From Patescibacteria group bacterium (GTDB lineage: Bacteria; Patescibacteriota; Patescibacteriia; Magasanikbacterales; GWA2-37-8), in NCBI GenBank assembly GCA_041661385.1, contig JBAZUP010000002.1, forward strand, positions 78,670 through 142,669: a DNA stretch of 64,000 nucleotides, written 5' to 3'. Positions 2,641 to 58,862 of this stretch are shown here, in pieces (within the stretch, counting starts at the first letter, position 1; every line of letters starts with the position of its first letter). Made by a program: the position numbers and the translations under genes. The notes under the pieces were generated by a model. The model was given only the letters and a program-made list of their open reading frames with translations. It was not told the DNA's origin and did not search any database.

Positions 2641-3234
2641 ATGGCGGAAGTACAACCAGTAGCGCCGATTCCGAGGCTAAGCCGTGAGCAGAAAATGGGT
2701 TTTGTTTTCTTGCTCGTTTTTGCTGTCGTCGGATTGGTTTTAGGGATATTGCAAATACGAAATACTTTGTTTGCGCCGTTCGCTCTTTCCAATGTGGTTC
2801 CTGCTTCAGTAAAAGAAAATATAAATGATGTAGAAAAATTACGGTACCGGGATACCGACAACGATGGACTCACTGATTTTGACGAAACTTACAATTATGG
2901 TACTAGCCCATATTTATACGATTCATTTGGCTATGGATTAAGCGATAAAGACGTTATAGAAAAGGGTTTACCACGCTGCGCAAATGCCGGCAAGAATTGC
3001 GCAACCGAAGAAACGGTTATTACGGCGGCAAGCGCCTCGTCTAGCGCTCAGTCAATAATAGGTGAACAGCCAATAGATATAAAAAATATTATAAACGATC
3101 CAAAACAAATTCGGGAAATGCTTTTAAAAAATGGTATGACCAAAGATGTGCTCGATAAGGTAAATGATGCGGAGCTGCTCGTAATGATTCAAGAATTAAT
3201 GGCAAGTACAACCTTATCAACATCTACAAATTAA
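2641..3234 (+). CDS. hypothetical membrane-anchored protein with Asp-rich Ca-binding-like motif
   Basis: N-terminal TM (FVFLLVFAVVGLVLGIL). DTDNDGLTDFDE thrombospondin-type-3/dockerin-like motif. Ends 4 nt before the giant gene. Confidence 0.4.
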   Translation: MAEVQPVAPIPRLSREQKMGFVFLLVFAVVGLVLGILQIRNTLFAPFALSNVVPASVKENINDVEKLRYRDTDNDGLTDFDETYNYGTSPYLYDSFGYGLSDKDVIEKGLPRCANAGKNCATEETVITAASASSSAQSIIGEQPIDIKNIINDPKQIREMLLKNGMTKDVLDKVNDAELLVMIQELMASTTLSTSTN

Positions 3235-3237
3235 TTT

Positions 3238-6200
3238 ATGCGCGATAGGTTTAGAAAATTTTCAAAATTAACGCTAGTGTCGTTATTTTTATTTGTTTTA
3301 GTTTTTGGTGATTTAGTATTAATGAATAGAGTTAATGCGCAGCCGGATGGTTCGGTCGCGGATTTTGCGGCCTTAGATGCAGGAGGGGGTGTTCCGGTAA
3401 CAGATATTGGTGCGTCGGTTTCACGATTGATGTCGAGTATTAAAGCCTTAATTAAATCCGCCTTGATTAGCGGCGGTATTCGAGCGGCTTCATATGCGCT
3501 TCGAAAGGTTGCGTTTGATTCTGCGGTTTGGGTGGCATCTGGTGGCAAAGGTCAAAGTCCGCTTGCACATACTGGAGGATTTGGCGGTTATTTAAAAAAT
3601 GTGGGCGATGAGGCTGCCGGAACTTTTATTTCTGAAATGAGTAGTAAAGCGGGGGTAAACCTTTGTAAAGTGCCGGATATTAAAATTGATTTAGCCATTA
3701 AAGTCGGTCTTCGTACCAGATTTGGCGGCGGACCACCGGCCAAACCAGTCTGTACGCTCAGCCAATTTACAAAAAATTGGAGCAGTGGTGAAGCTTGGAG
3801 CAAATATTCCGATCCAAACAAGCTTGCAAAAAGTTTTAGTTCGAGTATTATCGCCAATGATAGTGATTTAGGTATTTACATCGCGGCCACGGAAAAAATA
3901 AATAATAAAATTATACAACAAAAAGAAGCGGCAACTTTAGATCGACAAGAAGGTGATGGTATTAAATCTCTAAATACCCTGATTGGAGATCAGATAAAAA
4001 CTCCCGCTGCTCTTGTAAAAAAAACAGTCGAAGGTCTTGATCCGGCAGAAACCCTTAAAAAAAATGAGGCCTTGTTAAACTCCGCTTTAGCAGGTGGTGA
4101 TGCCAAGGTTTTTCCGGCAGTATTAAGTATTTTTCTTAGTACTTTAGGCGGTACAATTCTTAATAATTTTCAAACAAAAGGTATTTTGCCAACCGGTATG
4201 TGTGCCGGGGGTATTGGCGGACCTGGTTGTAGTAATGGTTCCGGGTCTTATAATAACCCGCTCTTTAACGAAAGCGGGGAGGGTCTTACTTCACTTGGCC
4301 GGGCAGCGGCAAAAAGTTTTTTTAATTATTTAACAGCGGTTAAAATCAAGGAAGTCAATCGCTATGATTTGGCTTCACAGCTTAACAGCTGTCCGGATTC
4401 GCCGGGTATTTATAATTGCCGCGCGGGAGATGATTTAACAAATGCAATCGATCAAAAAATTACTATTGAAGACGCGATAAAACTGGGTATACTCGATGGC
4501 AACAAAAAATTAATTCCGGATGATGTTAAAACTCGTTCAATAAGCAATGATTTGAATTGTTATTTAAGCGCTTATTGTTTGAATAATGTAAAAGTTTTAA
4601 GACAGCTCAGAATTTTACCGCTAGGTTTTGAAATTGCGATTTCACGTTCTAATCCTAATGATTTATCCACGCTAAAAAGCGTGGTTGATGCGTTTAACGA
4701 TAAAAATTCCTCTTTTTATCATCTTATTGATCCGCGCTGGGTGATAAAAGCTCCCGAAGCAAAGTGTAATGCGTTGGTAAATAGCGCCAGTTTGCTTGGA
4801 GCAGATCTGCCAGCTCGTCTTCAAGATTGTGTTGATTTGCAAACCTGTGTCGGTTACGACAACAACGGTAATTGTATCGATTATGGATATTGTACTCGTG
4901 AACAAAATACATGGAAATTTCCCGCCGATAAATGTTCGGAGCAATTTGCGACTTGCGCGGTATTCCAAAATTCAAAAGGAAATTCTGTAGGTTATATCAA
5001 ACGCACCCTCGACAGCGCTTACTGCACCCAAAGTAATGATGGCTGTACCGCTTATAGTCTTTCAAGAAATTCACTCAATCAGTGGGTCGCTCCGCAATTT
5101 CCAGCGACAGCCAGCGCGAACGCCGGAATATTTTTAAACTCTAAAGCTGAAACAGATTGTTCGGCGAATTCGGCCGGGTGTTCAATTTTTAAAATTGCTT
5201 CCGCGAATTCCAATGATTATTTGAATATTAAAAAAGCACCAGATTATTTAGGGTGTTACGATAGTAACCCTGCAACTCCAGCCATAGACTGGCCGCAAAC
5301 AGCTATTGATCTCGGCCGGCTTTCCACCAATTCAGAATGTAATAATTATGCAAAAGCTTGTACAGCCGATGAAGCCAGTTGTAATTGGTATACTCCGAAA
5401 AATGGCGGTATCAAATTGCCGGGCCGATTTGTTCCGGCCGTTGTTACGACTTCTTCCGTAATTTGGAATGATCAATGTGACGCCCGTTGCGAGGGGTATA
5501 ATGTTTACCGCGAAATGCCAAGTAATTATTCCAATGGTCAGGATCTTGCTTATATAATTCCTTCTTCCGGCAAAACTTGTGTTGCGGAAGACGAGGGTTG
5601 CTCTAGCTTTACGAATCTGAGCACTGCTGTCGGCGGGGTAGAAAATACCGAATATTATTCTTATCTCCGGCCTTGTATTACCATGTCCGAAGCGACCAGC
5701 ACAGTCGCAAAGACCTTTATTACTTATGAAGGTTCCAAAGAAAATGGTTTTCAACTTCATACTTATTTAATGTTGTTTAACCAAGGCACAACGGACGTTC
5801 CACAAAACGGACCAGCTGGCTCGCCAAAATATTTTTATAAAGATCCGGCCGAACTTGCCTCGTTAAATAATGAATGTACCGAGCAAAGATATAAAGACGG
5901 TGTCGCATCGCTTGATTGTCGCCAGTTCAATGACAAAGACGGCAATATTTATTACCGAATGATTTCGCATACGATACCCGCGAATGAAAAATGTACCGGT
6001 TATCGTTTGAACGACCCGGAATTTTATGTTGATGCAACGATTGTAACGCCCGATGCCTGTCAAACTCGACTGGGTAATTGGACCAATTCTGGCGGTGCGA
6101 ATGTTTGTGAAATGTGTGTTCAAAATGGTGAATACCGTAATGGCGCCTGTATCTATTCTGGAATACCAACCGGCGTTCAAAATCCGGCCGGTGTCAGTCG

Positions 6201-9200
6201 CTCTTGTGGCGCTTCGGCAGATACTTGTCGCGCCTACAAAGGCAATGCCGGAAATAATATTCAAACCGTCTTTAGTGAAAATTTTGAAACCGCGAGTTCT
6301 AGCGACGGTTGGGTTGGTGGTGGATTCAGAGCGTTAGTTTCTACCCGCGTGGGTGAATATTCATTTGAACATGATGGCGGCGGTGCGTTTAGTAAGTCTC
6401 TCACTTTGGAACCTGGCAAGAGCTACGATCTTACCTTCTGGGCTTCGGCCGCGAGCATGGCCAATGTGACAGTGTCTTTGAATAATGGCACTGCGAATAC
6501 CATGGGTGTAGTAAGTGTCTCCGGTGTTTGGAGGCAATATCACCTTGGCACTATTGAATTAAAAGGTGCTAATCCGTCTGTGCAATTAACCTTTAATCAC
6601 GCGGCGGGCGATTCGATATATCTAGATAATATTAAATTGGTAAAAGTTGCCAGTTATTTATACTTGGTAAAAAATTCTCTTAGCGTTGATCCGGTTTGCG
6701 ACAGTATTCCAAATGATAATTTACCTGGAGAGGCGCTCGGCTGTTCGGCTTATTCCGATCCGCAAGGTCGCTCCTTCTACCTTACCAACTTTAGTTTCCT
6801 TTGCCGTGAAGACGCGATTGGCTGTACCGCTCTCTTTGATACCTTTAATACTGAAAGCACTTTACCAGAGGCGTATCACGTTTGGATTCCGGGAGCCGCC
6901 AGCACCACTGTCAACGGGTCAATTCCTGCTCCATATTCCTGTAAGATCGGCGATGGTCAGAATGGTTGTTATGTAGATATTAAGGGATATAGTTTGAGTA
7001 CAATTCGGGCGGCACTTAATGGTAGTGTTGTTGCTTCAACTGTTTATATCCCCGGCGACACTCCAAGCTCAAGTCCGGTATATCTGGTCGCAAATAAAGC
7101 CGCTTCTTGTAATGAGGTTGATCTTGGTTGTTCACTTGCCGGCAAGCAGGTGTTTGGTTCAAATGGATGGCAGTTTATGACCACCACCATAAAAAATGTT
7201 CCTGCGTCTTATGCCGATACGCTTTGTGAGAGTCAGGCAACCGGTTGTAGCGCTTTCTCCGAAGGTGATTCCATTTCATATTTTAAGGATCCGTCCGTAG
7301 CAGGACAAACCTTATGTGCTTATCAAACCGATGTGCCGGTCGCAAATGGCACTTCGGGTACGAAACGGCAAAATGGCTGGTTCTTGAAAACCCGAGTGGG
7401 AATTTGCAGTAATAGTTCGAGTTTAACTTGCCACGAGAATACAGCGGCCAGTGACTGTGGTGTGGGTACCGCGGTTTGTACCCAATTAACCTACGATCCA
7501 TGCTATCCGGCCGAGCCGCAAACCACTATTGGTTATGATTTATTATCCTTTGGAACTACCGGTTATCAAAATATTGTTGGCGAGTGTCCGTCCGATCAAA
7601 ATAAATGTACTGAAATTATTGATCATGCCGGCAATTCAAGTAACAGAAAAAATTATTTAATATTTGACGACAAACTTACTTCGGGTGACTGTGCCGGGCA
7701 AGTAAGTCAAAAGCTGGGGTGCGCTCTTTTTGATCAAACGGATAATCCGATAAAATTATGGCACACCACCAGCACCTATGCGTTTAGCGAAACAGTCGAA
7801 AATGTTTTGGTTTCGCCATCTTCAACTTCAAACAACGATGCAAATTTAATTTTGAAAGTAGTCCCAGATCGTTCTTGCGGAGAATGGCTCTCGTGCGGCA
7901 GTTCATATTCAGTTTACGATGATCAAACCGGTAAATATCGAAATGTTTGCAATCGTATCCAACGCTGTAATGGCTCCACTTGCAGTGGCGTAAATGCTAC
8001 TTATGCTAATTCTATTTTAAACTCAGATATTTATACAGCACGAACCACCACTTGGGCTGGTATGGATTATGCCGGTTATTCGCTCTTGGGTTTTTATCCG
8101 GTCGAAAGATTTGACCAGGTAAACATGGTAACCTCGACCGACAACCCCGATTGGCGCTTGGTAAAGAAAGTTCCGTGCGGCGTTATTAGCGGAGTCAGTA
8201 ACTGTACTACCGGTAGTGTAAATATTTATAGCTGTGGCGAACCGAGCGGATATGTCGATGGTTTACCATGTGGCACTGAATCAGTACCGGGTGTATGTAT
8301 GAATCACATTTGTGTTCAGCCTCCAACCGGTGTAGACACTGCTATCACTCAGCAAGAACTTGCCGATATTTCGCCAAGTCACAGTTGCCGAGCTTATCCC
8401 GAATCCGATTCGCCATTCCCACGCACTCAAAAAATTATAAACGGCGGAGCATTTAGTGGTGTCCATATTTGTAGTGAAGAAAATCCAAATGGCTGCGAAT
8501 GTAATTATCGCAAAGTTTCTTATGGCGATTCAATTATAAAATATTGGAATTATTCCGGAAATGATTCAGTCGATTCAAAAATCGGCAATTTAAACGGTAA
8601 CGATCCGGTTGGTATTTGTTTGGGCGGTACGGGAGAGGGTAATAGCTGTTCAACCGATAGCCAATGCCCCGAGGGAGCTTGTCAGTTTAAATCGGGCACA
8701 GTGCGAAAACTTTTGGGTTGGAAAGGTTTTTGTTTAGAAAAAGATACTAGCAGAGTTTTGAATGCTGACCCGGCCGTAAACCCATGTCTCACTTGGTTCC
8801 CGGTAGAATCGCTGGTCGGTGCAGCCGATATATATAATCAGCATACCGAGGCGGGCACAGATTGGCACGCGACTCCTCACAATGGCGGATATTATTGTCT
8901 TAGTTCCTCCGGAACTTCCACAACCAGAACCGCCAGAATCGCATTTTCACCGTCTGGTCTTTTTGCACAGGATCCTCGTCAAGATCAGTGTGGCAACAGA
9001 GGTGCGTTTGGATTAGCTGATTGCAAAACTGAAAATTGTGGGAATGGTTGTAACTATCAATATACTAGGGAAATATTTTCCAGAAATATTATTGATATAC
9101 CAAGTCAAACTGAAATACTTGAAAATAATACGAGTAGAGCTTATGTAGCAGCTACTGATTTAGTTGGAATTAAAAAAGAAGATATTGGCGTTATAAAAAT

Positions 9201-11142
9201 TAGCACACTTACCGGTACAGGTGGGGCATATAATATTCCGGTTGGAAGTAATTTTTATCTTAATCCAAATGATTTACCAAATGGTACGCCCCAAACTTAT
9301 TATCATCTGGTAAATAATTTCGGTGAAATGTCGGCTGTAGTGGGTGGTTTTTATCGTGGCAATCCTAATGATTTATTATTATTTTATAGCAGCTCAGATC
9401 AGATTCCAGCAGTAAGTAATAATATCGGTCTAGATGTTAATACTGGGTTATTTAATTATTATTTTAGAGAAGCAAACGTTTATGATTTCCCTGGTTTAGT
9501 TGGCAATTTATTTTCCACAACTCCATCGTTTAAAGCGGGTACTATACAAGTCGATGATATTTGGGATGCGAATATAAGTAATACTTATGTAATTGCCGCA
9601 CCTGCTACTCAGATTCCTGATCCCTATTCTGACCCCATGAACCCCACATATATAGATGTTCCAGCGACAGTTAATACGGGTTTTTGTCCAACCGATTTAA
9701 TTATAAATGGTAGCCACGGTCATTACGATGCGCCATATACATGGCACGCAATTCGTTTTAGGTTTGATCCATACACTCATCAATTAGTTAATGTATACAC
9801 TGCATTTTGTGGGCCCGTTAGAGGGGCAGATGATGTTGTATATCAAATATCTTTCCAAACTCGCGAATGGTGTACTGATTTGGCGAACGATCAAATTGAT
9901 TTAGCGCGATCGAGCGGCCAGCGCGCTATTGCTTGGACCGATCGACTCTTTAGCCTACCAAAGAGTCCGCCATTTTCTGTGCCCGATCTCGGATTTACTT
10001 ACGATACTATTAATCCCGCGTTTGGCAGTATTTCTCCGGTGTTAAATCCGCCTCTAAATCAACCGGTATCTCTCAGTCCCGCTCCGTCGATTGATTGTTC
10101 AAGTTACAATTCAAATACCAGTAACTGCAGTTCGTTTGCGCAACCTCTTATCAACAATTCCCATACTGGATCGGCTTACAGCAGAAATTCCACTTTTCCA
10201 AATGATGTGCCTTATTGTGTTCGAGGTCCTTGTCTAATTCGGAATCCGTTTACTAACGCTTGTATGGCTTATTTTATAGACTGTTCATTGGCACGGCCGC
10301 CAGCAGCCGGTGGAAACAATTATTTGCTTACGGTATTTGCCGCTCATAATAATATTCTAAGTTATCGAACTTCTACCGCTTCTTATGTAAATAATGCTGT
10401 GTCGACAATGCCATTAAATATTACTCAATCCGGAGATTATATTACTGGTGTTCAGCCCAAACCGCCCGAAATTCACCCACTCGGTCGGAGTGTGTCTGGT
10501 ACCGGAAGTAATGCCGGAGTTTATTATGAGGAATTGCCGGCGCTGGGTTTTTCAGTGAACAATTCGAGTACCGGACAAGTGGTGTCCGCTCTTGGCAATG
10601 GGTATAATTTTTCCTTGGATTTCTTCATGTTTGCCGACAAAAATCAAATGCCGATTCGCTCGGTCACGATTGATTGGGGAGATGGGTATGCTCCTGTTCC
10701 GAATGCCGGATCTTTCCGCAATCAGCGTGGTGTTACTTCTACCGCTCCGTTAAAATTGCAGTGTCAGCCTCGGGCGAGCGCCATTGATTTCGGTCATATT
10801 CTTGATCAAACTTGCGACAACGCATATTTCCACGCCGAAAATATTTATTCCTGTGCTGGTTCGGCCGGCAATGTCTGTGCTGGGTTGAATGACAGTAATT
10901 GCTATGTCCCTGCGAATGATGCTCGAAATTTATGTCCTACTGCTTACCAAGCATCCGGTTGTTGTTTCTTCAAACCAAAGGTTAGAATTATAGATAATTG
11001 GGGGTGGTGCAATGGAAGTTGTATTGCAGGAAATGGTGGTTGTTATGATGCCTCGGTGAGTGGTGGAATTAATCAATGTAAAGAAGATCCGCGTTCTTGG
11101 ACAACATTTGGTGGTACAGTTGTTGTACCTAGCAGTAATTAA
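3238..11142 (+). CDS. giant (2634 aa) Cys-rich secreted/surface protein with CBM4/9-like beta-sandwich segment
   Basis: Uninterrupted 7.9-kb ORF. N-terminal signal/TM (LTLVSLFLFVLVFG). Very many paired cysteines. Segment near nt 6270-6640 (WVGGGFRALVS...SYDLTFWASAA...IYLDNIKLVKV) resembles carbohydrate-binding modules. Intrinsic terminator follows directly. Confidence 0.7.
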   Translation: MRDRFRKFSKLTLVSLFLFVLVFGDLVLMNRVNAQPDGSVADFAALDAGGGVPVTDIGASVSRLMSSIKALIKSALISGGIRAASYALRKVAFDSAVWVASGGKGQSPLAHTGGFGGYLKNVGDEAAGTFISEMSSKAGVNLCKVPDIKIDLAIKVGLRTRFGGGPPAKPVCTLSQFTKNWSSGEAWSKYSDPNKLAKSFSSSIIANDSDLGIYIAATEKINNKIIQQKEAATLDRQEGDGIKSLNTLIGDQIKTPAALVKKTVEGLDPAETLKKNEALLNSALAGGDAKVFPAVLSIFLSTLGGTILNNFQTKGILPTGMCAGGIGGPGCSNGSGSYNNPLFNESGEGLTSLGRAAAKSFFNYLTAVKIKEVNRYDLASQLNSCPDSPGIYNCRAGDDLTNAIDQKITIEDAIKLGILDGNKKLIPDDVKTRSISNDLNCYLSAYCLNNVKVLRQLRILPLGFEIAISRSNPNDLSTLKSVVDAFNDKNSSFYHLIDPRWVIKAPEAKCNALVNSASLLGADLPARLQDCVDLQTCVGYDNNGNCIDYGYCTREQNTWKFPADKCSEQFATCAVFQNSKGNSVGYIKRTLDSAYCTQSNDGCTAYSLSRNSLNQWVAPQFPATASANAGIFLNSKAETDCSANSAGCSIFKIASANSNDYLNIKKAPDYLGCYDSNPATPAIDWPQTAIDLGRLSTNSECNNYAKACTADEASCNWYTPKNGGIKLPGRFVPAVVTTSSVIWNDQCDARCEGYNVYREMPSNYSNGQDLAYIIPSSGKTCVAEDEGCSSFTNLSTAVGGVENTEYYSYLRPCITMSEATSTVAKTFITYEGSKENGFQLHTYLMLFNQGTTDVPQNGPAGSPKYFYKDPAELASLNNECTEQRYKDGVASLDCRQFNDKDGNIYYRMISHTIPANEKCTGYRLNDPEFYVDATIVTPDACQTRLGNWTNSGGANVCEMCVQNGEYRNGACIYSGIPTGVQNPAGVSRSCGASADTCRAYKGNAGNNIQTVFSENFETASSSDGWVGGGFRALVSTRVGEYSFEHDGGGAFSKSLTLEPGKSYDLTFWASAASMANVTVSLNNGTANTMGVVSVSGVWRQYHLGTIELKGANPSVQLTFNHAAGDSIYLDNIKLVKVASYLYLVKNSLSVDPVCDSIPNDNLPGEALGCSAYSDPQGRSFYLTNFSFLCREDAIGCTALFDTFNTESTLPEAYHVWIPGAASTTVNGSIPAPYSCKIGDGQNGCYVDIKGYSLSTIRAALNGSVVASTVYIPGDTPSSSPVYLVANKAASCNEVDLGCSLAGKQVFGSNGWQFMTTTIKNVPASYADTLCESQATGCSAFSEGDSISYFKDPSVAGQTLCAYQTDVPVANGTSGTKRQNGWFLKTRVGICSNSSSLTCHENTAASDCGVGTAVCTQLTYDPCYPAEPQTTIGYDLLSFGTTGYQNIVGECPSDQNKCTEIIDHAGNSSNRKNYLIFDDKLTSGDCAGQVSQKLGCALFDQTDNPIKLWHTTSTYAFSETVENVLVSPSSTSNNDANLILKVVPDRSCGEWLSCGSSYSVYDDQTGKYRNVCNRIQRCNGSTCSGVNATYANSILNSDIYTARTTTWAGMDYAGYSLLGFYPVERFDQVNMVTSTDNPDWRLVKKVPCGVISGVSNCTTGSVNIYSCGEPSGYVDGLPCGTESVPGVCMNHICVQPPTGVDTAITQQELADISPSHSCRAYPESDSPFPRTQKIINGGAFSGVHICSEENPNGCECNYRKVSYGDSIIKYWNYSGNDSVDSKIGNLNGNDPVGICLGGTGEGNSCSTDSQCPEGACQFKSGTVRKLLGWKGFCLEKDTSRVLNADPAVNPCLTWFPVESLVGAADIYNQHTEAGTDWHATPHNGGYYCLSSSGTSTTRTARIAFSPSGLFAQDPRQDQCGNRGAFGLADCKTENCGNGCNYQYTREIFSRNIIDIPSQTEILENNTSRAYVAATDLVGIKKEDIGVIKISTLTGTGGAYNIPVGSNFYLNPNDLPNGTPQTYYHLVNNFGEMSAVVGGFYRGNPNDLLLFYSSSDQIPAVSNNIGLDVNTGLFNYYFREANVYDFPGLVGNLFSTTPSFKAGTIQVDDIWDANISNTYVIAAPATQIPDPYSDPMNPTYIDVPATVNTGFCPTDLIINGSHGHYDAPYTWHAIRFRFDPYTHQLVNVYTAFCGPVRGADDVVYQISFQTREWCTDLANDQIDLARSSGQRAIAWTDRLFSLPKSPPFSVPDLGFTYDTINPAFGSISPVLNPPLNQPVSLSPAPSIDCSSYNSNTSNCSSFAQPLINNSHTGSAYSRNSTFPNDVPYCVRGPCLIRNPFTNACMAYFIDCSLARPPAAGGNNYLLTVFAAHNNILSYRTSTASYVNNAVSTMPLNITQSGDYITGVQPKPPEIHPLGRSVSGTGSNAGVYYEELPALGFSVNNSSTGQVVSALGNGYNFSLDFFMFADKNQMPIRSVTIDWGDGYAPVPNAGSFRNQRGVTSTAPLKLQCQPRASAIDFGHILDQTCDNAYFHAENIYSCAGSAGNVCAGLNDSNCYVPANDARNLCPTAYQASGCCFFKPKVRIIDNWGWCNGSCIAGNGGCYDASVSGGINQCKEDPRSWTTFGGTVVVPSSN

Positions 11143-11152: not shown

Positions 11153-11180
11153 AAAAAACCCCGATTCAATCGGGGTTTTT
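11153..11180 (+). terminator. rho-independent terminator of giant gene
   Basis: aaaaaccccgattcaatcggggttttttt: GC stem plus T-run. Confidence 0.7.
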
Positions 11181-11185
11181 TTATT

Positions 11186-11980: not shown

Positions 11981-12341
11981 CGAGGTGCGACGGATCGGCA
12001 GGGAATTGGTCATGGGCTTCTCCAGGTGCATGGGAATGGTGAGTGGCATCAACTTTGCGTCGAGGGTCTGTTGTTTCATGATGAAACTTCCTTCGGCCTC
12101 AAGGGCCCGTTGTGGCCCTTTGGGCCGTTAAACTTCTACAGACATTTTCAGAATTCTTTGAAGCTAAGGCAGAAATAGAAAATAATGGATTATTTACTAC
12201 CTATTTCCACCTTAGCTTTTCCAACTTCATAGTGGTTATTATTGGTCAAAAAATGACTAAAATAACACATTGTAAAGAGCAAAAGATGTAATAAATACAT
12301 CATTGTTTTTCAACCCAATTCTATCATAAGAAAAACATATA

Positions 12342-12460: not shown

Positions 12461-15400
12461 ATGACGATAGAAAATATCGTAAAAAAGCTTGTTTCATGGA
12501 AAAAAATAACGCGAAATCAAAAAGCGATTTTTTTGTCGACTTTATTTTTATTTATATTTGGATTATTTTTTGCTGTTCTTCCCGCCTCAGCCCAAACGAA
12601 TACATTTGTCGGTAACAGTTTTTTTGACGCGCTTCTTATCAGCATGTCTCGGGTCATGATGGTAGTAGCACAAACCTGTTTACAGCTGCTCATGTTTGTT
12701 TTAACTTTCATTATTCAAATTGCCGCCTACAATAACTACTTAGATTCCACTGCCGTAAACACCGGTTGGATTTTAATCAGAGATCTTACCAATATGGTTT
12801 TTGTGGTGGCTTTGCTCGCCATTGCTTTCGGCACGATTCTTGGTATCGAACACTACGAATGGAAGCATATGTTGTTCAAGTTGGTTTCTGCCGCAATTTT
12901 AGTAAATTTCAGCCGCATCATCTGTGGCATTCTCATTGATATTTCTCAAGTAGTGATGATGACATTTTTAAATGGTATCGCTGCCACGATGGGCGGTAAT
13001 CTTATTCGCACTTTTAGTTTGGAAAAAATTCAAAGTTTTAGGCCTGGTGTCTCGGGCGCTCTCATTGACCCAGCCACCGTATTTATTACCGCCATGGCGG
13101 CGGTGTTTATTTCGGTCACGATATTGGTTGTCATGGGTATCATGCTCGGCATGCTTGTTGGGCGTATGATAGTGCTTTGGGTACTCATTGTACTTTCTCC
13201 AGTCGCTTTTGTGCTCGGGGTTTTACATCAGACCGAACACTATGCTTCAGAGTGGTGGGGTGAATTTGGTAAAAATGTTATAACCGGCCCGGTTTTAATA
13301 TTTTTTATTTGGCTTACTTTGGTTACGGTCGGAAGTGGAGTTATGGACCAAGAAATGAATAATGCTACCACTGGCGTTCCAAAACCAGAAACTATCAATG
13401 TCGGTATTGCTGATGTCTTATCCGGTGGTAAATTAGTAAATTTTGCTATTGCGATTGGCATGCTTTTGGTTGGTTTGCGGGTTACTCAGCATCTCGGTGG
13501 TATTGGCGCCGAATGGACCGGCAAAGCGGTAAGTATTGGTAAGAAAGCCGCAATGGCGGTGAGCGGTGTCGCACTCGCGCGTGATATGGCAAAATCTGCC
13601 GGTGGAGCGGTTCGGGATTATGGTCAACAAAGTTACAAAAATCTTGTTTCTGCACCGAAGGCGTTGGCTTCAATGGGTTTATCAAAAATAAAAATGACAC
13701 GGGATAATATTGCACAAGGCTTTGAAAAAGGTGGTAAAAAAATGATTGAATTAAAAAGTTTAAGAGATCGAAAGATTATTTCTGAGAAAGAATATCAGGC
13801 GCGTGTTAAGGGTGATGAAGTTGCATTAGGTCAAGTATATAATGAGAAAGCATTTTCACAATCTCGCGAAGAAGGCGATAAATATCGCGCTCAATTGGAA
13901 GCTGAAAATAAATTACTAAAACCGGCCGACCGACTTTCAAAGTCTCAAATTGCTCTCAAGGTTATGCAAAGGCAACAAGAAGTAATTGCTAATGTTCAAA
14001 GAGAAAAAGAAAAAGCATTAGCGGACAGTCCAAAAAAAGGTGGAGTATTTCAGTCTACAGCGGCAGGTCGCGTGGCTGGGAGTGTTTTGGGTTCGATTTT
14101 TCAATCTCAGTCCAGGGCGACTTCAAGAGCTGAAAATTGGGCACAGGCCGCTGAAAGCCTGAAAGTACGAGCTGGAAACGAAGAAAGTACAAGTGCTACG
14201 TTGGGTGGTCAGGTTAAGTTGAAACAAGGTGTACTTGAACACGCCTCCGTAGAAAGAGGTAAGGCTAAATCGCAACAGAAAAAAGATGAAGAAGCCCAGG
14301 CACTTATTGCAACGGAAGACGAAACATTCCATGAGTTAGAAGAAGGTGCAAGAAAGGCGAAGGCTGCTGGAACTGTGGCGCAAGCCTATGTTTCTGGTCA
14401 TGAGGCGTTAGCTCAACAAAAAGCTGATCAGAAAGCTGGTGTATACCGGGCTAAAACAAAACAAGAAATAGAAGAAGGCCTCGCGCGAGCTAGAGATAAT
14501 AGTGGCGTTGCCTTAGAAAGAGAAAAACTTATTTCCGAACCATTGATGGTCCGCGGTAATAAAATAGATTATATTGATCATACTCCGGAAAGTTTAAAAC
14601 TAGCCGAGAGTCATATTGATTCATTGGTCAGTGATGAGGGTGAGCGTGAAAAATTAAAGCAAAAAGCCGAAGCAATGCATATGGAGGCTTCCAGAAAGAG
14701 AGAAGAGGCAATCGGAGTACAGCGTAAAGAAGCGGTTGCTGCCCAAGAAACTGCTGCCGGTGCAAAAGCAAAAGAACAATTAGCGAAAGAAGGTGATTAT
14801 AGATTGAGAGAGCAAAGAATCACCGGCTTTACTGCAGAAATGAATCAGATTCAGGACAAGCTTACCGCAGAACGGCAAAATGAATTATTAACTTCAATTA
14901 GAAATTTATTAGAATCAGAAGTTGGCCTGACTAGGCAACAACAAATTGCTTCTTTTCAGGCGGGCAATAAAATGCAAGAAGATAGAACTGGGGGCATAAA
15001 AGAGCGTGAGGCTTTAGCAGCAAGGAGAGAATTGATGGCTTCGGCGGATAGTCGCCGGGAATTAAGGGAGACAGAACAACAAAAAGCACAAAATAAGCAA
15101 CAAGAAGAAAGATTGAGTGGAATAGGTGAAAGAGAAGCTGGGCGTGCAAAACGAGATTTGTTAGCAACTACTGGAGGACAAAATGAGCAGGCGAAAATTT
15201 ATCGCACAAGAGGACAAGAGGAGCTCGATAAAAGCTTGGCGGAAGATCCGCAAATAATGATGCAAGCGAGAGAAAAAGCTGCCATTTATAGACGTAATGG
15301 GGATCCCCTAAGGGCAGAAGCGACACTTAAATCAGCTTCAGCTCAAGTTGATAAAAAATATTCGGAATTATTTTCTGGCCTAACTTATGATGACCGAATG

Positions 15401-16231
15401 GCACAAGAAAAAATTCTATTAAGAAGGATTGCTGTAGAATCGGCGCCGGGAGGTGATCGGCGTAGGCTTGAAACTGCACAAGCAATGCGAGCTGCTTTAA
15501 CGCGATTAAATACAGCATCAGATGCTTCTTCGGCTCGAGACGGACGACAGGCCGCTGCGAGTGAATTGGGGGTTACCCAGATAGACGATACAAATAGTTT
15601 TATGGTTGAATTACAGCGGCTTACTGGTAATAGGAGTAATAATATAAATATTTTAAAAGCCGCTTTTGAAGCGAGGTTTAGAGGTGACCGGGTACAAAAA
15701 CAAGCGGCGTTAAGAGGATTATTTGAAGCTTACAAAAAAGCGGCTGAACGGGGAGATGAAACAGCGTTAGGCTTTATTAAAAAAGATTTAGTTGGTGCAT
15801 CAGGAAGTGAGACACTTAATTTTGAATGGGCAGCTGATCAAACGGACGCTAACAAATATGCCACGACGTATGGTACTTTTTTTGCGGAAAGAGCAAAGGG
15901 GCAAGTTGATACGATTGCTCCGATGTCTGGAAAAACTAAACAATCTGCGAGTGGTGAATGGGTAATGAATGGACAGACTACACAAGGACGTAAATCAATT
16001 GTCGCTTTTCATAAAGGAAAAGATGGAAGAGAGATGTCACAAAAAGATATGACTCCAGTTTACGCTTCTTGGAATAGTGCAGAAGTGAATGGGGCAAATG
16101 TTGCAGAGTATGTTCAAACAATGCAGGAGATAAAAAATGCCATGCCAGATGATGGATGGAGAAAATTCGAAGAAAATGTGAAAGATCTTAAAGCAAAAAT
16201 GGCCGCTTTTGGAGGTACCTGGCCACCGTAG
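12461..16231 (+). CDS. VirB6/TrbL-like polytopic membrane protein with long C-terminal charged coiled-coil extension (1256 aa)
   Basis: About 340 aa of multiple TM helices, then about 850 aa of E/K/R/A/Q-rich predicted coiled coil. It is the first gene of a cluster containing VirB4. Extended VirB6 proteins are known in Gram-positive and Rickettsiales T4SS. Confidence 0.5.
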   Translation: MTIENIVKKLVSWKKITRNQKAIFLSTLFLFIFGLFFAVLPASAQTNTFVGNSFFDALLISMSRVMMVVAQTCLQLLMFVLTFIIQIAAYNNYLDSTAVNTGWILIRDLTNMVFVVALLAIAFGTILGIEHYEWKHMLFKLVSAAILVNFSRIICGILIDISQVVMMTFLNGIAATMGGNLIRTFSLEKIQSFRPGVSGALIDPATVFITAMAAVFISVTILVVMGIMLGMLVGRMIVLWVLIVLSPVAFVLGVLHQTEHYASEWWGEFGKNVITGPVLIFFIWLTLVTVGSGVMDQEMNNATTGVPKPETINVGIADVLSGGKLVNFAIAIGMLLVGLRVTQHLGGIGAEWTGKAVSIGKKAAMAVSGVALARDMAKSAGGAVRDYGQQSYKNLVSAPKALASMGLSKIKMTRDNIAQGFEKGGKKMIELKSLRDRKIISEKEYQARVKGDEVALGQVYNEKAFSQSREEGDKYRAQLEAENKLLKPADRLSKSQIALKVMQRQQEVIANVQREKEKALADSPKKGGVFQSTAAGRVAGSVLGSIFQSQSRATSRAENWAQAAESLKVRAGNEESTSATLGGQVKLKQGVLEHASVERGKAKSQQKKDEEAQALIATEDETFHELEEGARKAKAAGTVAQAYVSGHEALAQQKADQKAGVYRAKTKQEIEEGLARARDNSGVALEREKLISEPLMVRGNKIDYIDHTPESLKLAESHIDSLVSDEGEREKLKQKAEAMHMEASRKREEAIGVQRKEAVAAQETAAGAKAKEQLAKEGDYRLREQRITGFTAEMNQIQDKLTAERQNELLTSIRNLLESEVGLTRQQQIASFQAGNKMQEDRTGGIKEREALAARRELMASADSRRELRETEQQKAQNKQQEERLSGIGEREAGRAKRDLLATTGGQNEQAKIYRTRGQEELDKSLAEDPQIMMQAREKAAIYRRNGDPLRAEATLKSASAQVDKKYSELFSGLTYDDRMAQEKILLRRIAVESAPGGDRRRLETAQAMRAALTRLNTASDASSARDGRQAAASELGVTQIDDTNSFMVELQRLTGNRSNNINILKAAFEARFRGDRVQKQAALRGLFEAYKKAAERGDETALGFIKKDLVGASGSETLNFEWAADQTDANKYATTYGTFFAERAKGQVDTIAPMSGKTKQSASGEWVMNGQTTQGRKSIVAFHKGKDGREMSQKDMTPVYASWNSAEVNGANVAEYVQTMQEIKNAMPDDGWRKFEENVKDLKAKMAAFGGTWPP

Positions 16232-17510
16232 AAATATAAATATGACTTTAAACCTAAAAGATAGTCAGCAGCTAGAATCAAAGCTAGTAGAAAATTCACA
16301 AACACCACAAGGGCGTGAGAATGTTTGGGTTTTTTTGCATTCTTATTTTCTTAATGCAACACCAGACGACGACAAAAAAGTTCGACTGACTTTATTTCGT
16401 TGGTATACAGACTTGACCTGGAAAAGAATAAATTTACTTTCAAATGAAGATTTTGTAAATGTCGCTTTTGGTCGACAAGTACCACTCGCTTTACTTCTCG
16501 GGTTTGATATTCAAAAAATTCTTTTTGATTATTTAAATTTTCGATGCCCAGAAAAGGAAGACATGGTGGATGTTTATGCAAAAACAAAAAATGCTTTTAT
16601 GAATTCTGAGGCTTTTCTTGGTTCGTTGGACGGAATTGAATATGGCGTAAAAGATATTATACCGGATATAAAAAAATATAATTTAGAAAGCCTGTCTACT
16701 TTAGAAAAAGCGACTATTACAGAAAAATTAACAAAAATATTGTTTCCCAAGAAAGATGAATTATTTAATCAATATATATTTACCGAGCCAACTCAGGTTG
16801 TTGATTGGTTTATCGGGTTGGTAAATTTTTTCATGGGTGTAAAAGCTGAGGATATTAAATTGATAGTGGACGGTTATAATAGAGAAGAGGATGAAGAAAT
16901 TATTAAAATATCCGAAAATAATAAAAAAATTGCACAAAAAGAGACAGAAAATAAACCATTCGAATTAAAACAATCGGAATCGATGAAAAATGTTATTCCG
17001 GTTATAAAACCCGAAGAGCCAAAAAAGCCGGAAATAAAAATTGAGGCTAAAAAAGAGATAAAACCCGAAGCGAAAAAAGAAATTAAACCTGAAATTAAAC
17101 CAACTGAAATTAAGGCCGGCGCAAAAACGCCGGAGAAAACTGATGACTCTATGTTTTTCTCAAAAAAATCAACTTCGCCAAAGAAACAAGAAGGTGAAGT
17201 AAATCACAATGTCGATGAAAACCTAAATGCTCCGAAGGCCCTGACACGTTCGCCAATTTTATCTGGTCATAAAAAGCCAGAAACGACGACGGGGGTAACC
17301 AATCGAAGATTGTCTTATAAGGAAATAAGAAAGCAATTAGAAAGCCGATTTGCAAAGGACTCGTATGGGCATTTCTTGAATGTGACAGATGTGCTGAACG
17401 AGTTGCAAAAAATTTCTGTTACGCAAGAAGATCCGCACATAAAAGATTTGTATTATTTTAATGAACAAGCTGGAGGATTTGAGTGGAATGAAAATTTACT
17501 CAAAGATTAA
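16209..17510 (+). CDS. hypothetical protein with KPE/KKEIKPE tandem repeats
   Basis: Real start is probably ATG at 16239 (MTLNLKD). Lys-Pro-Glu repeats (EIKPEAKKEIKPEIKPTEIK), no TM. Sits between the VirB6-like gene and the Pro-rich gene. Confidence 0.45.
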   Translation: MEVPGHRRNINMTLNLKDSQQLESKLVENSQTPQGRENVWVFLHSYFLNATPDDDKKVRLTLFRWYTDLTWKRINLLSNEDFVNVAFGRQVPLALLLGFDIQKILFDYLNFRCPEKEDMVDVYAKTKNAFMNSEAFLGSLDGIEYGVKDIIPDIKKYNLESLSTLEKATITEKLTKILFPKKDELFNQYIFTEPTQVVDWFIGLVNFFMGVKAEDIKLIVDGYNREEDEEIIKISENNKKIAQKETENKPFELKQSESMKNVIPVIKPEEPKKPEIKIEAKKEIKPEAKKEIKPEIKPTEIKAGAKTPEKTDDSMFFSKKSTSPKKQEGEVNHNVDENLNAPKALTRSPILSGHKKPETTTGVTNRRLSYKEIRKQLESRFAKDSYGHFLNVTDVLNELQKISVTQEDPHIKDLYYFNEQAGGFEWNENLLKD

Positions 17511-17512
17511 TT

Positions 17513-18964
17513 ATGTCTGATCAAGACGAAATAAAAATTTTAGTAAAGAAATCTGACGGCAGTTTTATACACATGCCGATTTCGGAAGTTCAAAAACACA
17601 ATCGGCTGACACCGACTGCGTCTTCCGCCGAGCCTGTTTTATCAAAACCGGCGGCTTTTAATCCCGCTGCGCCATTTGCTTCTGTACAGCCGGTTGCACC
17701 TGCTGCACCTCAAAAGCCAGCTGCGCCAGTTGCCCCTCAAAAACCAATTGAAAAACCGGTTGAAAAGAAACCGGAAACAATGCCAGTTGTAAAACCGGTA
17801 GAAAAAAATGAAGCATCGAAACCTAAATTTAATCCAAAAGAAAATGCCAGATTAGAAAAAGAAATTCCGGCGGTAATCAAAGCGGCGCCGGTAGTAAAAA
17901 ATACGCCACCGGTTGCAAGTGCGCCAATAAAAAATATTTCGGCGGCAGTACCACCCATTCCGGTTACGCCACCCCAATCGAAACCAGTGGTACCAAAAAT
18001 CGAACCGGTTAATTTGTCAGTAGTATCTGAAAAGAATGATATGGGTTCGCTGCTGGATGAAAAATTACCGAATGAAAATAAACTCACTCCGCTTACCAGT
18101 GAATCAAGAGATAAGCAAGTTGATGAGATAATTAAAAGTATTGGTTTTAAAATACCTCCTGGAAATAATAGTAGAGTAAAAACAATCATTCAATTATTTT
18201 TAAAAGAAGTTCGAGGCAAGGAAGAAACAATGGAAATTTTACGCCGGCCCGAAATTGATGGGGGAGTTGGTTTGTCCGATGAACAAGTAAATGAAGTTTT
18301 AGAAAAATGCAGTAAAACTACGGTATCAGCTGCCGGCAGTTTTTCCGTGCCATCGTTAAAAACTGTGCCGAAAATAACCGTGCCGATGCCAAATAAACTA
18401 GCAGCGATTCAAATAACAAGAATTACGAATTCGCAAGTAAGCACAAATGACAATAAGCGCTTAGAAGCAGAGTTGCCGGCTGTGGTAATAAAAACAGCAG
18501 CCCCAAAACTGCCGCCAAAACCAATTGCGACTGGAGATGCTAGAAAAATTTTAGAAGAACAAATAACTAAAAATACAATGTCGGAATTACCTGGTAATTT
18601 TACGATTAATTCCGATCGAAATAAAACGACCATGTCGGATGTAAAATCGGCTCCGGCTCAAATGGGACCGATTGAGGAAATTCGTTATTTTAGTTTGGTA
18701 GATTTTCGTAGGTTGTCCGGAGATCCGACCGAGGCTGCCAATCGGTTGAAACAAAAGTTTTTAAATCTTCACGAGGAATCAGTAGTTTTTTATTTTGAGG
18801 GGCTCGACGCCTGGAAAATTTCGCCGCTTTATCACGATTATATAAATTTGGTAAGTGAGGCGATAAAAAAACGCCAGACGCTGGCGCAAGTTGCAGTAGA
18901 TAAATCCAGAATACAAGTTTCGGAAATAAGCGCGCTTATTAAAATGGAAAAAGAATTAGGCTAG
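17513..18964 (+). CDS. hypothetical Pro/Ala/Lys-rich repeat protein
   Basis: PAAPQKPAAPVAPQKPIEKPVEKKPETMPVVKPVEK low-complexity repeats. Start is 3 nt after the preceding gene. Confidence 0.5.
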   Translation: MSDQDEIKILVKKSDGSFIHMPISEVQKHNRLTPTASSAEPVLSKPAAFNPAAPFASVQPVAPAAPQKPAAPVAPQKPIEKPVEKKPETMPVVKPVEKNEASKPKFNPKENARLEKEIPAVIKAAPVVKNTPPVASAPIKNISAAVPPIPVTPPQSKPVVPKIEPVNLSVVSEKNDMGSLLDEKLPNENKLTPLTSESRDKQVDEIIKSIGFKIPPGNNSRVKTIIQLFLKEVRGKEETMEILRRPEIDGGVGLSDEQVNEVLEKCSKTTVSAAGSFSVPSLKTVPKITVPMPNKLAAIQITRITNSQVSTNDNKRLEAELPAVVIKTAAPKLPPKPIATGDARKILEEQITKNTMSELPGNFTINSDRNKTTMSDVKSAPAQMGPIEEIRYFSLVDFRRLSGDPTEAANRLKQKFLNLHEESVVFYFEGLDAWKISPLYHDYINLVSEAIKKRQTLAQVAVDKSRIQVSEISALIKMEKELG

Positions 18965-18965: not shown

Positions 18966-19406
18966 ATGCAACAATTTACCGTACCACAATTTATTGATGT
19001 TGAAGATAAAATTTTTGGTCCTGTTACAGCCCGTCAATTTAGTATTATGATTGGGGCGGTTGGTCCGATATTTTTAGCTTATAAACTCGCAGATTTTGCT
19101 TTATTTGTATTTATCGCGATTTTAATCGGCGGCACGGCAGCGATGTTTGCTTTTGTGCGCATAAATGGACAGGCTTTTCATTATTTTGTTTTAAATATTT
19201 TACAAACCTTACGTCGTCCAAGTCGTCGTCTTTGGTATAAAAGTTATACGAACGCTTCTTTGCAGGATTTTTTAAATTATGAAAAGCAAAATGTAAAAGA
19301 TAAATTGGATGCGGAAGATAATAAAATTGAAAAAAAAGTTATTTCCAATACGCGCATCAGAGATTTGTCGCTATTAGTGAATACCGGCGGGTATTTTAAA
19401 GTTTAA
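18966..19406 (+). CDS. small 2-TM membrane protein, VirB3/PrgI-like candidate
   Basis: 146 aa with two hydrophobic helices (IMIGAVGPIFLAYKL, ALFVFIAILIGGTAAMFAFV). Position just upstream of VirB4 matches prgI/virB3 in Gram-positive-type T4SS. Confidence 0.4.
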   Translation: MQQFTVPQFIDVEDKIFGPVTARQFSIMIGAVGPIFLAYKLADFALFVFIAILIGGTAAMFAFVRINGQAFHYFVLNILQTLRRPSRRLWYKSYTNASLQDFLNYEKQNVKDKLDAEDNKIEKKVISNTRIRDLSLLVNTGGYFKV

Positions 19407-19415: not shown

Positions 19416-20102
19416 ATGAAAAGCAAAACCGAAGAAAAAAAGAAGAAAAGCATGGTTACGACCCAAAACCATTTGCTTATTTCTGAAATTAAACAGGACA
19501 CTGTAATAATGAAAGACGGTACTCTTCGCGCTGTTATTATGGTTTCGAGTATTAATTTTGCGTTAAAAAATGACGACGAACAAAATGCGATTATTCAGTC
19601 TTATGTCGGTTTTTTAAATTCACTCGACCATCCCTTGCAGGTCGTAATTCAATCTCGCAAATTACAAATCAAACCATATATCGACCGCCTAATTCAGCAG
19701 GAGCGCAATCAGACAAATGATTTATTGCGCACCCAAACCGCCGATTATCGGTCGTTCGTACTTGAGCTTGTAAAGCTTGGTGAAATTATGAACAAGCAAT
19801 TTTATGTGGTAGTTCCTTATGATCCGATTTCAAATAAAACAAAAAGTTACTGGAGTCGCGTGAAGGAAGTTATAAATCCTACGGCGGCGATTTCTTTAAA
19901 AGGTAAAAAATTTGATGAGCGCAAGAAAGATCTCGACAGCCGGGTACACCTTGTTGAAAGCGGTCTAACCAGCATTGGCTTACAAATTGCGAGGTTAAAT
20001 ACCCAATCGCTCATTGAACTATATTACTCAACTTATAATACTGACATTGCTTTGGTTCAGGAACTTGCCCCAATTGAGCAATTGCAGGTAGAAACAGAAT
20101 AA
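19416..20102 (+). CDS. VirB4/TraC N-terminal domain-like protein (first part of a split VirB4)
   Basis: LLISEIKQDTVIMKDGTLRAVIMVSSINFALKNDDEQNAIIQSYVGFLNS resembles the N-terminal region of VirB4/TrbE. It is in the same frame as the next ORF, separated by one TAA at 20100-20102. Confidence 0.5.
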   Translation: MKSKTEEKKKKSMVTTQNHLLISEIKQDTVIMKDGTLRAVIMVSSINFALKNDDEQNAIIQSYVGFLNSLDHPLQVVIQSRKLQIKPYIDRLIQQERNQTNDLLRTQTADYRSFVLELVKLGEIMNKQFYVVVPYDPISNKTKSYWSRVKEVINPTAAISLKGKKFDERKKDLDSRVHLVESGLTSIGLQIARLNTQSLIELYYSTYNTDIALVQELAPIEQLQVETE

Positions 20103-22010: not shown

Positions 22011-22601
22011 ATGCCATTAAGAACACGAATTTTTATAATGATTGGTGCCGGGGTATTTGTTATCGGGGTAATAAGTATTTTTATAATTTTTAAGTTTGGC
22101 AAAAAGCCGGTCACAACTCCGCCGGTTCAGGAACAGGTAACCATTAATCAAACAAATGATCAGGTTAATGTAAAAGTTGGCACCGAACCGACTGTCGTGC
22201 CAAAGAATGTAAAGATAACCCCTCCGACTGCAATTCAGCAGGAAGATATTACGGTAAAAAATATCGCTCGAGTTTATATTGAAAGATATCATACCTATTC
22301 TAGCGAAAATAATTTTCAAAATATTCGTGATATTGAATCAATTGTCACTGCAGCCTATTGGAAAAAAATCAGCGCGCCAATGGTCGCAAAAATAGCGCCT
22401 CCGGCTAGTTTTGTTTCTTTAACAACCGAGGTGCTTAGCATATTATCAGTTGATGTAAAAAGCATCAGCGCATCGGTGGCGTTAAACACCCGTCAAACTG
22501 CTATCGCAAACGGACAAACTACTGTTAGCTTTAAAGAATATACCGTGACGCTTGTTAAGTCTGGTGGTAGCTGGCTGGTAAGTGGAGAGACTGCAAAATA
22601 G
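22011..22601 (+). CDS. bitopic membrane protein, VirB8-like (NTF2-fold) candidate
   Basis: N-terminal TM (IFIMIGAGVFVIGVISIFIIF). C-terminal about 120 aa has an NTF2-like character ending SGGSWLVSGE. Directly follows VirB4. Confidence 0.35.
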   Translation: MPLRTRIFIMIGAGVFVIGVISIFIIFKFGKKPVTTPPVQEQVTINQTNDQVNVKVGTEPTVVPKNVKITPPTAIQQEDITVKNIARVYIERYHTYSSENNFQNIRDIESIVTAAYWKKISAPMVAKIAPPASFVSLTTEVLSILSVDVKSISASVALNTRQTAIANGQTTVSFKEYTVTLVKSGGSWLVSGETAK

Positions 22602-22603
22602 TT

Positions 22604-37117: not shown

Positions 37118-37192
37118 TCCGGGATAGTTGAGTGGTACAACGCCACGCTGTTAACGTGGATATCCTAGGTTCGAATCCTAGTCCCGGAGCCA
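37118..37192 (+). tRNA. tRNA-Asn (GTT), CCA encoded
   Basis: Acceptor tccggga/tcccgga, anticodon stem ccacg/cgtgg with loop ctGTTaa, T-arm ctagg-ttcgaat-cctag. Its 3' end overlaps the recombinase stop region. Confidence 0.85.
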
Positions 37193-38677: not shown

Positions 38678-38680
38678 GAC

Positions 38681-41242: not shown

Positions 41243-41245
41243 AAA

Positions 41246-57299: not shown

Positions 57300-58862
<1,563 letters not shown>

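Follow-up and report, generated by a model that had tools for sequence, protein, structure and literature searches.

A giant cysteine-rich protein with a CBM4/9-type module, encoded at the head of a type IV secretion gene cluster in Magasanikbacteria

What kind of protein does a patescibacterium encode in a single gene of 2,634 codons, and what could such a protein be for? The gene lies in a 64,000-nucleotide stretch of a Patescibacteria group bacterium (GenBank assembly GCA_041661385.1, contig JBAZUP010000002.1, positions 78,670 to 142,669 of the forward strand), hereafter the window, and it is closely preceded by a small gene. A preliminary interpretation made from the letters alone (the sequence-only reading) had called the product a giant, cysteine-rich surface protein of a candidate phyla radiation (CPR) bacterium and a candidate host-attachment factor. 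That interpretation is partly supported by our analysis but had missed the context: the small and the giant gene head a type IV secretion system (T4SS) gene cluster, in a position that is conserved among relatives, and this changes the most likely functional frame of the giant protein. We are confident that its product is an extracellular, disulfide-rich surface protein carrying a genuine carbohydrate-binding-type module (CBM), and the family that it represents, though of a known general kind, is new, unannotated and very large.

3238..11142, + strand: gene for the giant Cys-rich secreted protein, 2634 amino acids (aa) plus stop (open reading frame and homologs)
2641..3234, + strand: gene for the small partner protein, 197 aa (transmembrane segment, TSP3-type motif, conserved position)

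The giant open reading frame begins with ATG and runs through 2634 codons with no internal stop, and a stop-free run of this length at 42% GC could not have arisen by chance. A search of 5.8 billion proteins returned 71 full-length, collinear homologs (2500–3475 aa, 26–57% identity), in keeping with the single uninterrupted gene that had been claimed. The idea that the gene is an assembly or frameshift artefact, and really several genes, has next to no probability: it is refuted by the uninterrupted frame and by collinear relatives of 2500–3300 aa from hundreds of independent assemblies, with both N- and C-termini conserved.

All named homologs but one are called 'hypothetical protein', the exception being mislabelled as an IS1 transposase, and their organism labels are Patescibacteria, Magasanikbacteria and, in one case, Kaiserbacteria. 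Using an exhaustive phmmer scan with aa 34–1000 as query, we found 1378 clusters at 50% identity with E ≤ 1e-3, including 1031 with E ≤ 1e-30; among the 150 matches listed, all were giant proteins whose alignment started at their own N-termini. Relatives are encoded in 361 stretches from GTDB contigs (one genome per species), the named ones overwhelmingly from Ca. Magasanikbacteria, and the family is essentially single-copy per genome (361 species hits). Many metagenome-assembled genomes (MAGs) derived from SRA are titled 'uncultured Gammaproteobacteria', which are probably placeholder titles. The assignment to a CPR bacterium is correct: the organism belongs to Patescibacteria, and its nearest relatives are Ca. 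Magasanikbacteria MAGs. Repeating the search with the family alignment revealed no relatives beyond the giant family, and our literature searches turned up neither an account of this family nor one of any giant Patescibacteria protein linked to a T4SS.

The sequence of the protein itself shows a signal for export and predicts extensive cross-linking.

3238..3339, + strand: Sec-type signal peptide, aa 1–34, predicted cleavage between VNA and QP (hydrophobic stretch aa 11–29; family PAxAQ motif)

The N-terminus has a basic n-region, the hydrophobic stretch at aa 11–29 and then VNA-QP, where the signal peptide would be cleaved; a PAxAQ motif (AxA followed by Q at the cleavage site) is kept at this point across the family. 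The protein contains 104 Cys (3.95%) compared to 0.52% in 32 other genes of the window. Pairs spaced as C-x6-C occur 14 times versus 4.0 ± 1.9 expected (2000 shuffles, none of which reached 14; z = 5.3), the recurring form being C-x6-C-[ST]-x-[FY], and CxxC is depleted to a single occurrence. About 45 Cys are invariant along the full length among 17–28 diverse homologs, and the Cys count is even in 62 of 67 full-length homologs, as full disulfide pairing predicts. These results agree with the signal or anchor and the many spaced Cys pairs that had been noted, and the Cys would form ~50 disulfides that rigidify an elongated stalk. In two divergent relatives, DsbA-like thioredoxin genes are located 2–4 genes upstream, a few genes ahead of a conserved group formed by ksgA, the small gene and the giant gene (L080, 6692–7435; L081, position 1). 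Among the open reading frames of the window, no DsbA or VKOR gene was found.

The sequence-only reading had also pointed to a segment resembling CBM4/9-type beta-sandwiches, and this segment is real.

6250..6657, + strand: CBM4/9-type beta-sandwich module, aa ~1005–1140 (Pfam, family profile against PDB, AlphaFold2 and Foldseek)

Pfam CBM_4_9 (PF02018) matched 13 of 17 diverse family members at the aligned position, with a best E of 6.7e-11, and no other domain recurred; several homologs also carry precomputed PF02018 matches. When the family profile was compared to all PDB sequences, CBMs were the sole significant matches, including 1gui_A (CBM4 of laminarinase 16A, E 2e-6), 3jxs, 8xmz, 1k42 and 2zez. 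We built two AlphaFold2 models from 28-sequence alignments, one of aa 1–1200 and one of aa 1435–2634. In the former, aa 1010–1140 have predicted local distance difference test (pLDDT) values of 70–87, and the best PDB fold match of the model using Foldseek is the CBM 8xmz_A (E 5.5e-8, template modelling (TM) score 0.71, root mean square deviation (rmsd) 3.4 Å), followed by CBM4, CBM16 and CBM61 structures; 1gui, 1gu3, 2zex and 2y6j are also among the matches. As modelled, aa ~1005–1140 has a CBM4/9-type jelly-roll fold like that of solved CBM4, CBM16 and CBM22 modules. It shares the beta-sandwich fold and profile-level sequence similarity with CBM family 4/9/16/22-type modules (PF02018), but differs from them in being embedded in a non-enzymatic giant protein and, in the window copy, in falling below the Pfam threshold. 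This module, which would be expected to bind a glycan, is the sole part of the giant protein assignable to a known family and makes up only ~5% of its length.

The small upstream gene had been proposed as a possible partner, and gene order bears this out: of 70 related loci, 69 have a homolog immediately before the giant gene, and the small protein is conserved when its homologs are aligned. The close adjacency holds as well, although the gap between its stop codon and the giant ATG is 3 nt rather than the 4 nt first given. The small protein has an N-in transmembrane anchor (aa 19–37), a conserved LQIRNT motif and a TSP3-type Ca-motif (DTDNDGLTDFDE, aa 71–82, nt 2851–2886). Beyond the motif come a single C-x6-C pair (C112/C119), then a Ser/Thr linker and, at the C-terminus, a conserved helix. 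Judged by its letters, the motif may be a Ca2+-binding repeat. Its match to Pfam TSP3_bac (PF18884) is sub-threshold, at 14.5 bits against a cut-off of 25 bits (E 0.032), and precomputed TSP3_bac matches in homologs are likewise weak or faint; across the family the consensus reads RDTDxDGLxDFDE, with a further DTDSDG that is degenerate in the window copy.

Downstream of the giant gene, the window continues as follows.

11153..11181, no strand assigned: bidirectional terminator-like hairpin A6-CCCCGATTGAATCGGGG-T6, 11 nt after the giant stop codon
11243-12079, − strand: lipoprotein-like gene, 278 aa, lipobox IVGC, Big_7 Ig domain, 9 Cys; convergent with the giant gene and sharing the hairpin at 11153-11181
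12461..16231, + strand: extended VirB6/TrbL-like protein, 1256 aa (8 hydrophobic segments; 40% identical to an L082 gene with a precomputed TrbL_3 match)
16209..18964, + strand: two conserved cluster proteins, 433 aa and 483 aa (low-complexity, Lys/Pro/Glu-rich, no transmembrane segment)
18966..19406, + strand: PrgI/VirB3-like protein, 146 aa (Pfam PrgI, E 2.9e-9, 37.8 bits against a 27-bit cut-off)
19416..20102, + strand: TrsD/TraC-like protein, 228 aa (49–58% identical to L080–L082 genes with precomputed Pfam TraC-like matches)
20106..22004, + strand: VirB4-type ATPase, 632 aa (Pfam P-loop_TraG, E 2e-26, plus AAA_10 and DUF87)
22011..23236, + strand: 196-aa bitopic membrane protein, possibly VirB8/PrgL-like, and ComF-type phosphoribosyltransferase, 210 aa (context, hydrophobic segment, Pfam)

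Given this gene content (VirB4 together with PrgI, TrsD and a VirB6-like protein), we classify the cluster as a Patescibacteria T4SS locus of the MPF-FATA-like kind. The VirB6-like protein has its eight hydrophobic segments in aa 22–337, followed by a ~900-aa charged, coiled-coil-like tail, making it an 'extended VirB6' in the sense of PMC12857230. The window matches the gene neighbourhood given in a published survey, in which Patescibacteria T4SSs were found to resemble the monoderm conjugation type, with TrsD, PrgI and VirB6 as common components; ksgA was frequent near virB4, comF near virB4 was typical of class ABY1, and adhesins such as PrgB were not detected (Quinonero-Coronel et al. 2025, PMC12102498). 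We compared the window proteins to 79 related loci using tblastn, limiting the count of VirB6-like genes to the 44 loci whose flank measured 4 kb or more. A VirB6-like gene was found downstream of the giant gene in 34 of these 44, and ksgA precedes the small–giant pair in nearly all related loci. The order KsgA, TSP3-type small protein, giant protein, VirB6-like, PrgI, TraC-like and VirB4 is kept even in the most divergent subfamilies, represented by loci L004, L080, L081 and L082, where the giant proteins are 26–27% identical. L001 and L004 share the T4SS gene order of the window, with the TrsD/TraC-like gene at the same position.

Upstream of the pair, Pfam identified DUF4015 and KsgA genes in the window. 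The former (580–1722) is a putative glycosyl-hydrolase gene with an N-terminal hydrophobic segment and is a frequent upstream neighbour of the KsgA–small–giant group in related loci. Matches to T4SS_pilin (PF18895) occur near the cluster in divergent relatives (L080, 1408–4658; L082, 455–1501; L004, 30005–30428) and were not found in the window. The lipoprotein-like gene at 11243-12079 has a local GC of ~0.50 compared to ~0.42 nearby and is absent from all 82 related loci, and so looks like a strain-specific insertion between the giant and T4SS genes.

How is the remainder of the giant protein built, and which parts of it vary? Its segments outside the CBM are the following.

3340..4347, + strand: N-terminal Gly/Ala-rich helical region, aa 35–370 (low-confidence AlphaFold2 helices, pLDDT 25–60)
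4348..4887, + strand: compact alpha/beta domain, aa 371–550 (AlphaFold2 pLDDT 75–89)
4888..6249, + strand: Cys-hairpin beta-rich region I, aa 551–1004, with divergent C-x6-C-[ST]-x-[FY] repeats (motif list, profile self-comparison, AlphaFold2)
6658..8937, + strand: Cys-hairpin beta-rich region II, aa 1141–1900, site of lineage-specific domain insertions (motifs, AlphaFold2, conservation, self-comparison)
8938..10587, + strand: hypervariable Cys-poor distal region, aa 1901–2450 (10–24% column identity)
10588..11139, + strand: conserved C-terminal Cys-rich domain, aa 2451–2634 (motifs NQMPIRxVxxDWGDG and PKVxVxDNWGWCNG; no sorting signal)

Conservation is strongly polarized along the family alignment: aligned homologs agree over the first two thirds of the protein, and the last third is hypervariable. 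Column identity is 30–60% over aa 50–1900 and 10–24% over aa 1900–2450, and the sequence is conserved again over aa 2450–2634. Between homologs P0046 and P0050, identity falls from ~90% (aa 1–1230) to ~65% (to aa 1630), ~35% (to aa 1900) and ~20% beyond, and in close pairs the N-terminal part is 80–99% identical versus 3–35% in aa 1901–2450. Lineage-specific domains are also inserted into the conserved stalk, including an NHL six-bladed beta-propeller at about aa 1425 in P0003, P0006 and P0008 (their aa ~1480–1790) and fn3 domains beside the CBM in P0067 (aa ~1350–1650). For the genome pairs that involve L004, L080, L081 and L082, the giant proteins are 26–27% identical compared to 68–73% for VirB4, indicating that the T4SS core changes much more slowly than the giant protein.

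In the N-terminal region (aa 35–370), the motif AYDSAVWxASGGKGQxPLA is conserved and aa 291–309 form a weakly hydrophobic helix; conservation is 30–50% in the family and 90–100% between close relatives. The region has no Pfam or PDB match and is a candidate membrane- or partner-proximal 'foot'. The alpha/beta domain (aa 371–550), whose invariant residues include C385, C394, R455, G463, E465, P499 and W501, also lacks a sequence match in Pfam or PDB. The model of aa 1–1200 has a mean pLDDT of 62, with good regions at aa 370–550, 760–1000 (beta strands, pLDDT 75–91) and 1010–1140; that of aa 1435–2634 is mostly beta, with a mean pLDDT of 60 and a predicted template modelling (pTM) score of 0.50. 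The C-x6-C-[ST]-x-[FY] module is detectable solely by internal profile–profile comparison, which aligned aa 596–659 with 708–799 (probability 90%), 631–723 with 1281–1345 (79%) and 602–652 with 1168–1200 (75%).

Apart from these internal likenesses and the CBM, comparisons to known proteins were negative. Pfam detected CBM_4_9 and no other recognisable extracellular domain in the window protein, NCBIfam had no match, and phmmer of the whole protein against PDB sequences gave none. The Myxococcus cysteine-rich repeat and other known Cys-rich repeat families had no Pfam match at E ≤ 1 in 17 members, and the PKD-like look of the motifs in aa 2451–2634 is an impression only, Pfam PKD giving no match. 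Using Foldseek, nothing significant was found for the aa 1435–2634 model in PDB (best E 0.08) or in the viral BFVD (best E 0.037). Profile matches to MxiG and ZorA were rejected as weak (E 0.33–4). More than 90% of the giant protein (about 2400 residues) is without a detectable relative among known domains or structures. The sequence-only reading had named two findings that would speak against it, namely that the gene was an artefact and that recognisable extracellular domains were lacking; the gene is real, and the remaining ~95% of the protein comes close to the second description. Its suggested checks on domains, repeats, structure and orthologs gave these results: CBM_4_9 as the one recurrent Pfam domain (17 members), a Cys-hairpin module that recurs on profile–profile self-comparison, two AlphaFold2 models of which the first supports the CBM fold and the distal one has no significant match, and lineage-specific NHL and fn3 insertions among orthologs.

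What might the protein do? The reading that we favour, with support and doubt about evenly balanced, is that of a Sec-exported, disulfide-stapled host-contact adhesin working beside the T4SS. The giant protein would be exported by Sec as an elongated, mostly beta-stranded molecule whose many disulfides act as short C-x6-C hairpin staples. Its conserved N-terminal part would probably be retained at the cell surface, where its candidate contacts are the small transmembrane TSP3-type protein and the extracellular face of the adjacent T4SS (extended VirB6, PrgI, TrsD, VirB4). The conserved Cys-hairpin stalk would bear the CBM4/9-type module and, in some lineages, the NHL propeller or fn3 domains, and the hypervariable distal third would contact the host-cell envelope. 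Surface retention, a polarity with the N-terminus proximal and functional coupling to the T4SS are all predictions from sequence and gene order. Its role would be that of a mating-pair-formation or host-contact adhesin not found by Patescibacteria T4SS surveys. The host-attachment role put forward earlier is plausible, and there is now more reason to consider it, given the T4SS context, the variability of the distal third and the binding modules inserted in some lineages. In one Saccharibacterium, the only species tested, epibiotic growth requires the T4SS and several surface proteins that bind polysaccharides (PMC10633639), and large Cys-rich extracellular proteins have been proposed as attachment factors in Peregrinibacteria (PMC4736985).

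More tentatively, and with considerable doubt, the giant protein and its small Ca-motif partner may form the extracellular arm so far missing from the Magasanikbacteria (class ABY1) T4SS, and host range may depend on it. In this stronger version VirB6 would hold the base of a disulfide-stapled stalk, the hypervariable tip would select the host cell, and the whole would replace the pilus or adhesin of other T4SSs; if true, the giant protein would determine host range in a large uncultured lineage. With its position at the head of the T4SS genes, its conserved base and its hypervariable tip, this family of >1000 clusters is a concrete candidate for a host-contact or host-specificity determinant in Magasanikbacteria, and the giant protein appears to be the best candidate for the host-contact part of a T4SS whose published survey reported no adhesin. 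Experimental handles include the CBM module (glycan binding), the invariant, even-numbered cysteines (disulfide mapping) and the small TSP3-type partner (complex formation).

Several observations weigh against the adhesin reading. The window copy of the CBM matches Pfam CBM_4_9 sub-threshold (aa 1011–1119, E 0.0061, 17.4 bits against a cut-off of 25.9 bits), the AlphaFold2 models are only moderately confident (mean pLDDT 60–62, pTM 0.36–0.50), and no anchoring signal, either LPXTG or a C-terminal transmembrane segment, is present in any family member examined. The episymbiotic lifestyle is itself deduced, because Magasanikbacteria have no cultured member. The tie between the giant protein and the T4SS would derive entirely from gene order, and the gene order is ambiguous in three respects. 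Ten of the 44 loci, a ~30%-identity subclade including L003, keep the KsgA–small–giant trio but lack T4SS genes in the next 10 kb downstream; the small–giant pair is linked even more tightly to the housekeeping gene ksgA than to the T4SS genes, so that the adjacency could stem from synteny inherited in these conservative genomes; and the hairpin and the convergent inserted gene between the giant gene and virB6 mean that they do not form one operon in the window. These same three observations, together with the essentially single copy per genome, favour another reading, in which the giant protein has a general envelope or structural role at the surface, for example as a wall-spanning scaffold or spacer, has no functional tie to the T4SS and owes its place near ksgA to inherited gene order. 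We regard such a scaffold as possible but doubtful. A hypervariable distal third and lineage-specific binding modules would be unexpected in a purely structural protein, S-layer-type proteins are usually Cys-poor, and the order from the giant gene through virB6 to virB4 survives down to 26% identity, although the flanks otherwise differ in gene content.

It seems improbable to us that the giant protein is an enzyme that processes the cell wall or glycans and serves as a functional analogue of VirB1. On that account an unrecognised catalytic domain (for example, aa 371–550), targeted by the CBM, would open the symbiont's or the host's wall for the T4SS. Glycoside hydrolases are the usual companions of CBM4/9 modules, and the PDB matches 1gui, 3jxs and 1k42 indeed come from a laminarinase and xylanases. 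The aa 371–550 domain is confidently folded in the AlphaFold2 model, E465/E555 are invariant and D498 nearly so, a DUF4015 gene is often found upstream, and VirB1 homologs were mostly not found beside virB4 in Patescibacteria (PMC12102498). However, no hydrolase family was detected by Pfam (17 members, E ≤ 1), by the family profile against PDB (E ≤ 10) or among the top Foldseek matches, and an enzyme would not need 2600 aa of Cys-stapled stalk. We consider it less probable still that the protein is secreted and reaches the host as a toxin, a pore-former or a polymorphic effector. That idea would draw on Foldseek matches to iota-toxin Ib, CDTb and Cry toxins (E ~1e-7) and on a conserved N-terminus with a variable C-terminus, reminiscent of polymorphic toxins. 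We rejected those matches: with TM scores of 0.15–0.24 and rmsd of 18–29 Å, they reflect shared beta-sandwich content, not architecture. The Sec signal peptide argues against the protein being a T4SS substrate, the variable part is ~700 aa long, internal and followed by a conserved C-terminal domain, and no conserved immunity-like gene was found downstream.

Among known systems, the host-contact adhesin that we favour can be compared to PrgB, the aggregation substance of pCF10 (MPF-FATA). Like PrgB, the giant protein is a large, apparently Sec-exported surface protein encoded with a monoderm-type T4SS (VirB6/PrgH, PrgI, VirB4/PrgJ) and a plausible factor for contact between donor and target, with a polymer-binding module. 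Unlike PrgB, it is chromosomal, about twice the size, has ~50 probable disulfides and no LPXTG, and is partnered by a small transmembrane TSP3-type protein; no Pfam or NCBIfam similarity between the two was detected. The cluster in the window looks non-conjugative, though no search for a relaxase was made there.

Large Cys-rich extracellular proteins of CPR bacteria make up a loosely defined class, of which the giant protein is a member, though within a distinct family of its own. The Peribacteria proteins of this class likewise have a signal peptide, >1500 aa, high Cys and no functional annotation, and an attachment role with strain variation has been proposed for them (PMC4736985). They average 7.2% Cys and form a 14-gene cluster, with FG-GAP or weak Myxococcus-repeat similarity in some (PMC4736985), whereas the giant family, set apart by this description, is single-copy and collinear, with 3.9% Cys, its own C-x6-C module, CBM4/9 and a fixed position at a T4SS locus. 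Its conserved N-terminal part, increasingly variable distal part and swapped or inserted modules are also reminiscent of phage receptor-binding and tail-fibre proteins and of other adhesins with a conserved base and a variable tip. In contrast to phage tail fibres, it is a chromosomal cellular protein with a Sec signal, and no similarity to viral proteins was found. Compared to polymorphic toxins such as CdiA and Rhs, it lacks a short variable C-terminal toxin domain, and its downstream genes belong to the T4SS or are unrelated.

Elsewhere in the window, tRNA-Val and tRNA-Ile genes come after a complete 16S rRNA gene (57300–60086); no 23S rRNA was found in the remaining 4 kb of the window, so the rRNA genes appear to be unlinked. 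At 42499–43478, open reading frames of ~310 aa overlap on both strands in a GC-richer segment (0.47), neither having a Pfam match and the segment having no Rfam match. Finally, at 37118–42283, a gene for a large serine recombinase (499 aa) on the minus strand directly adjoins a tRNA-Asn gene, a 749-aa subtilase and an AAA ATPase come next, and this region may be an element integrated at the tRNA gene.

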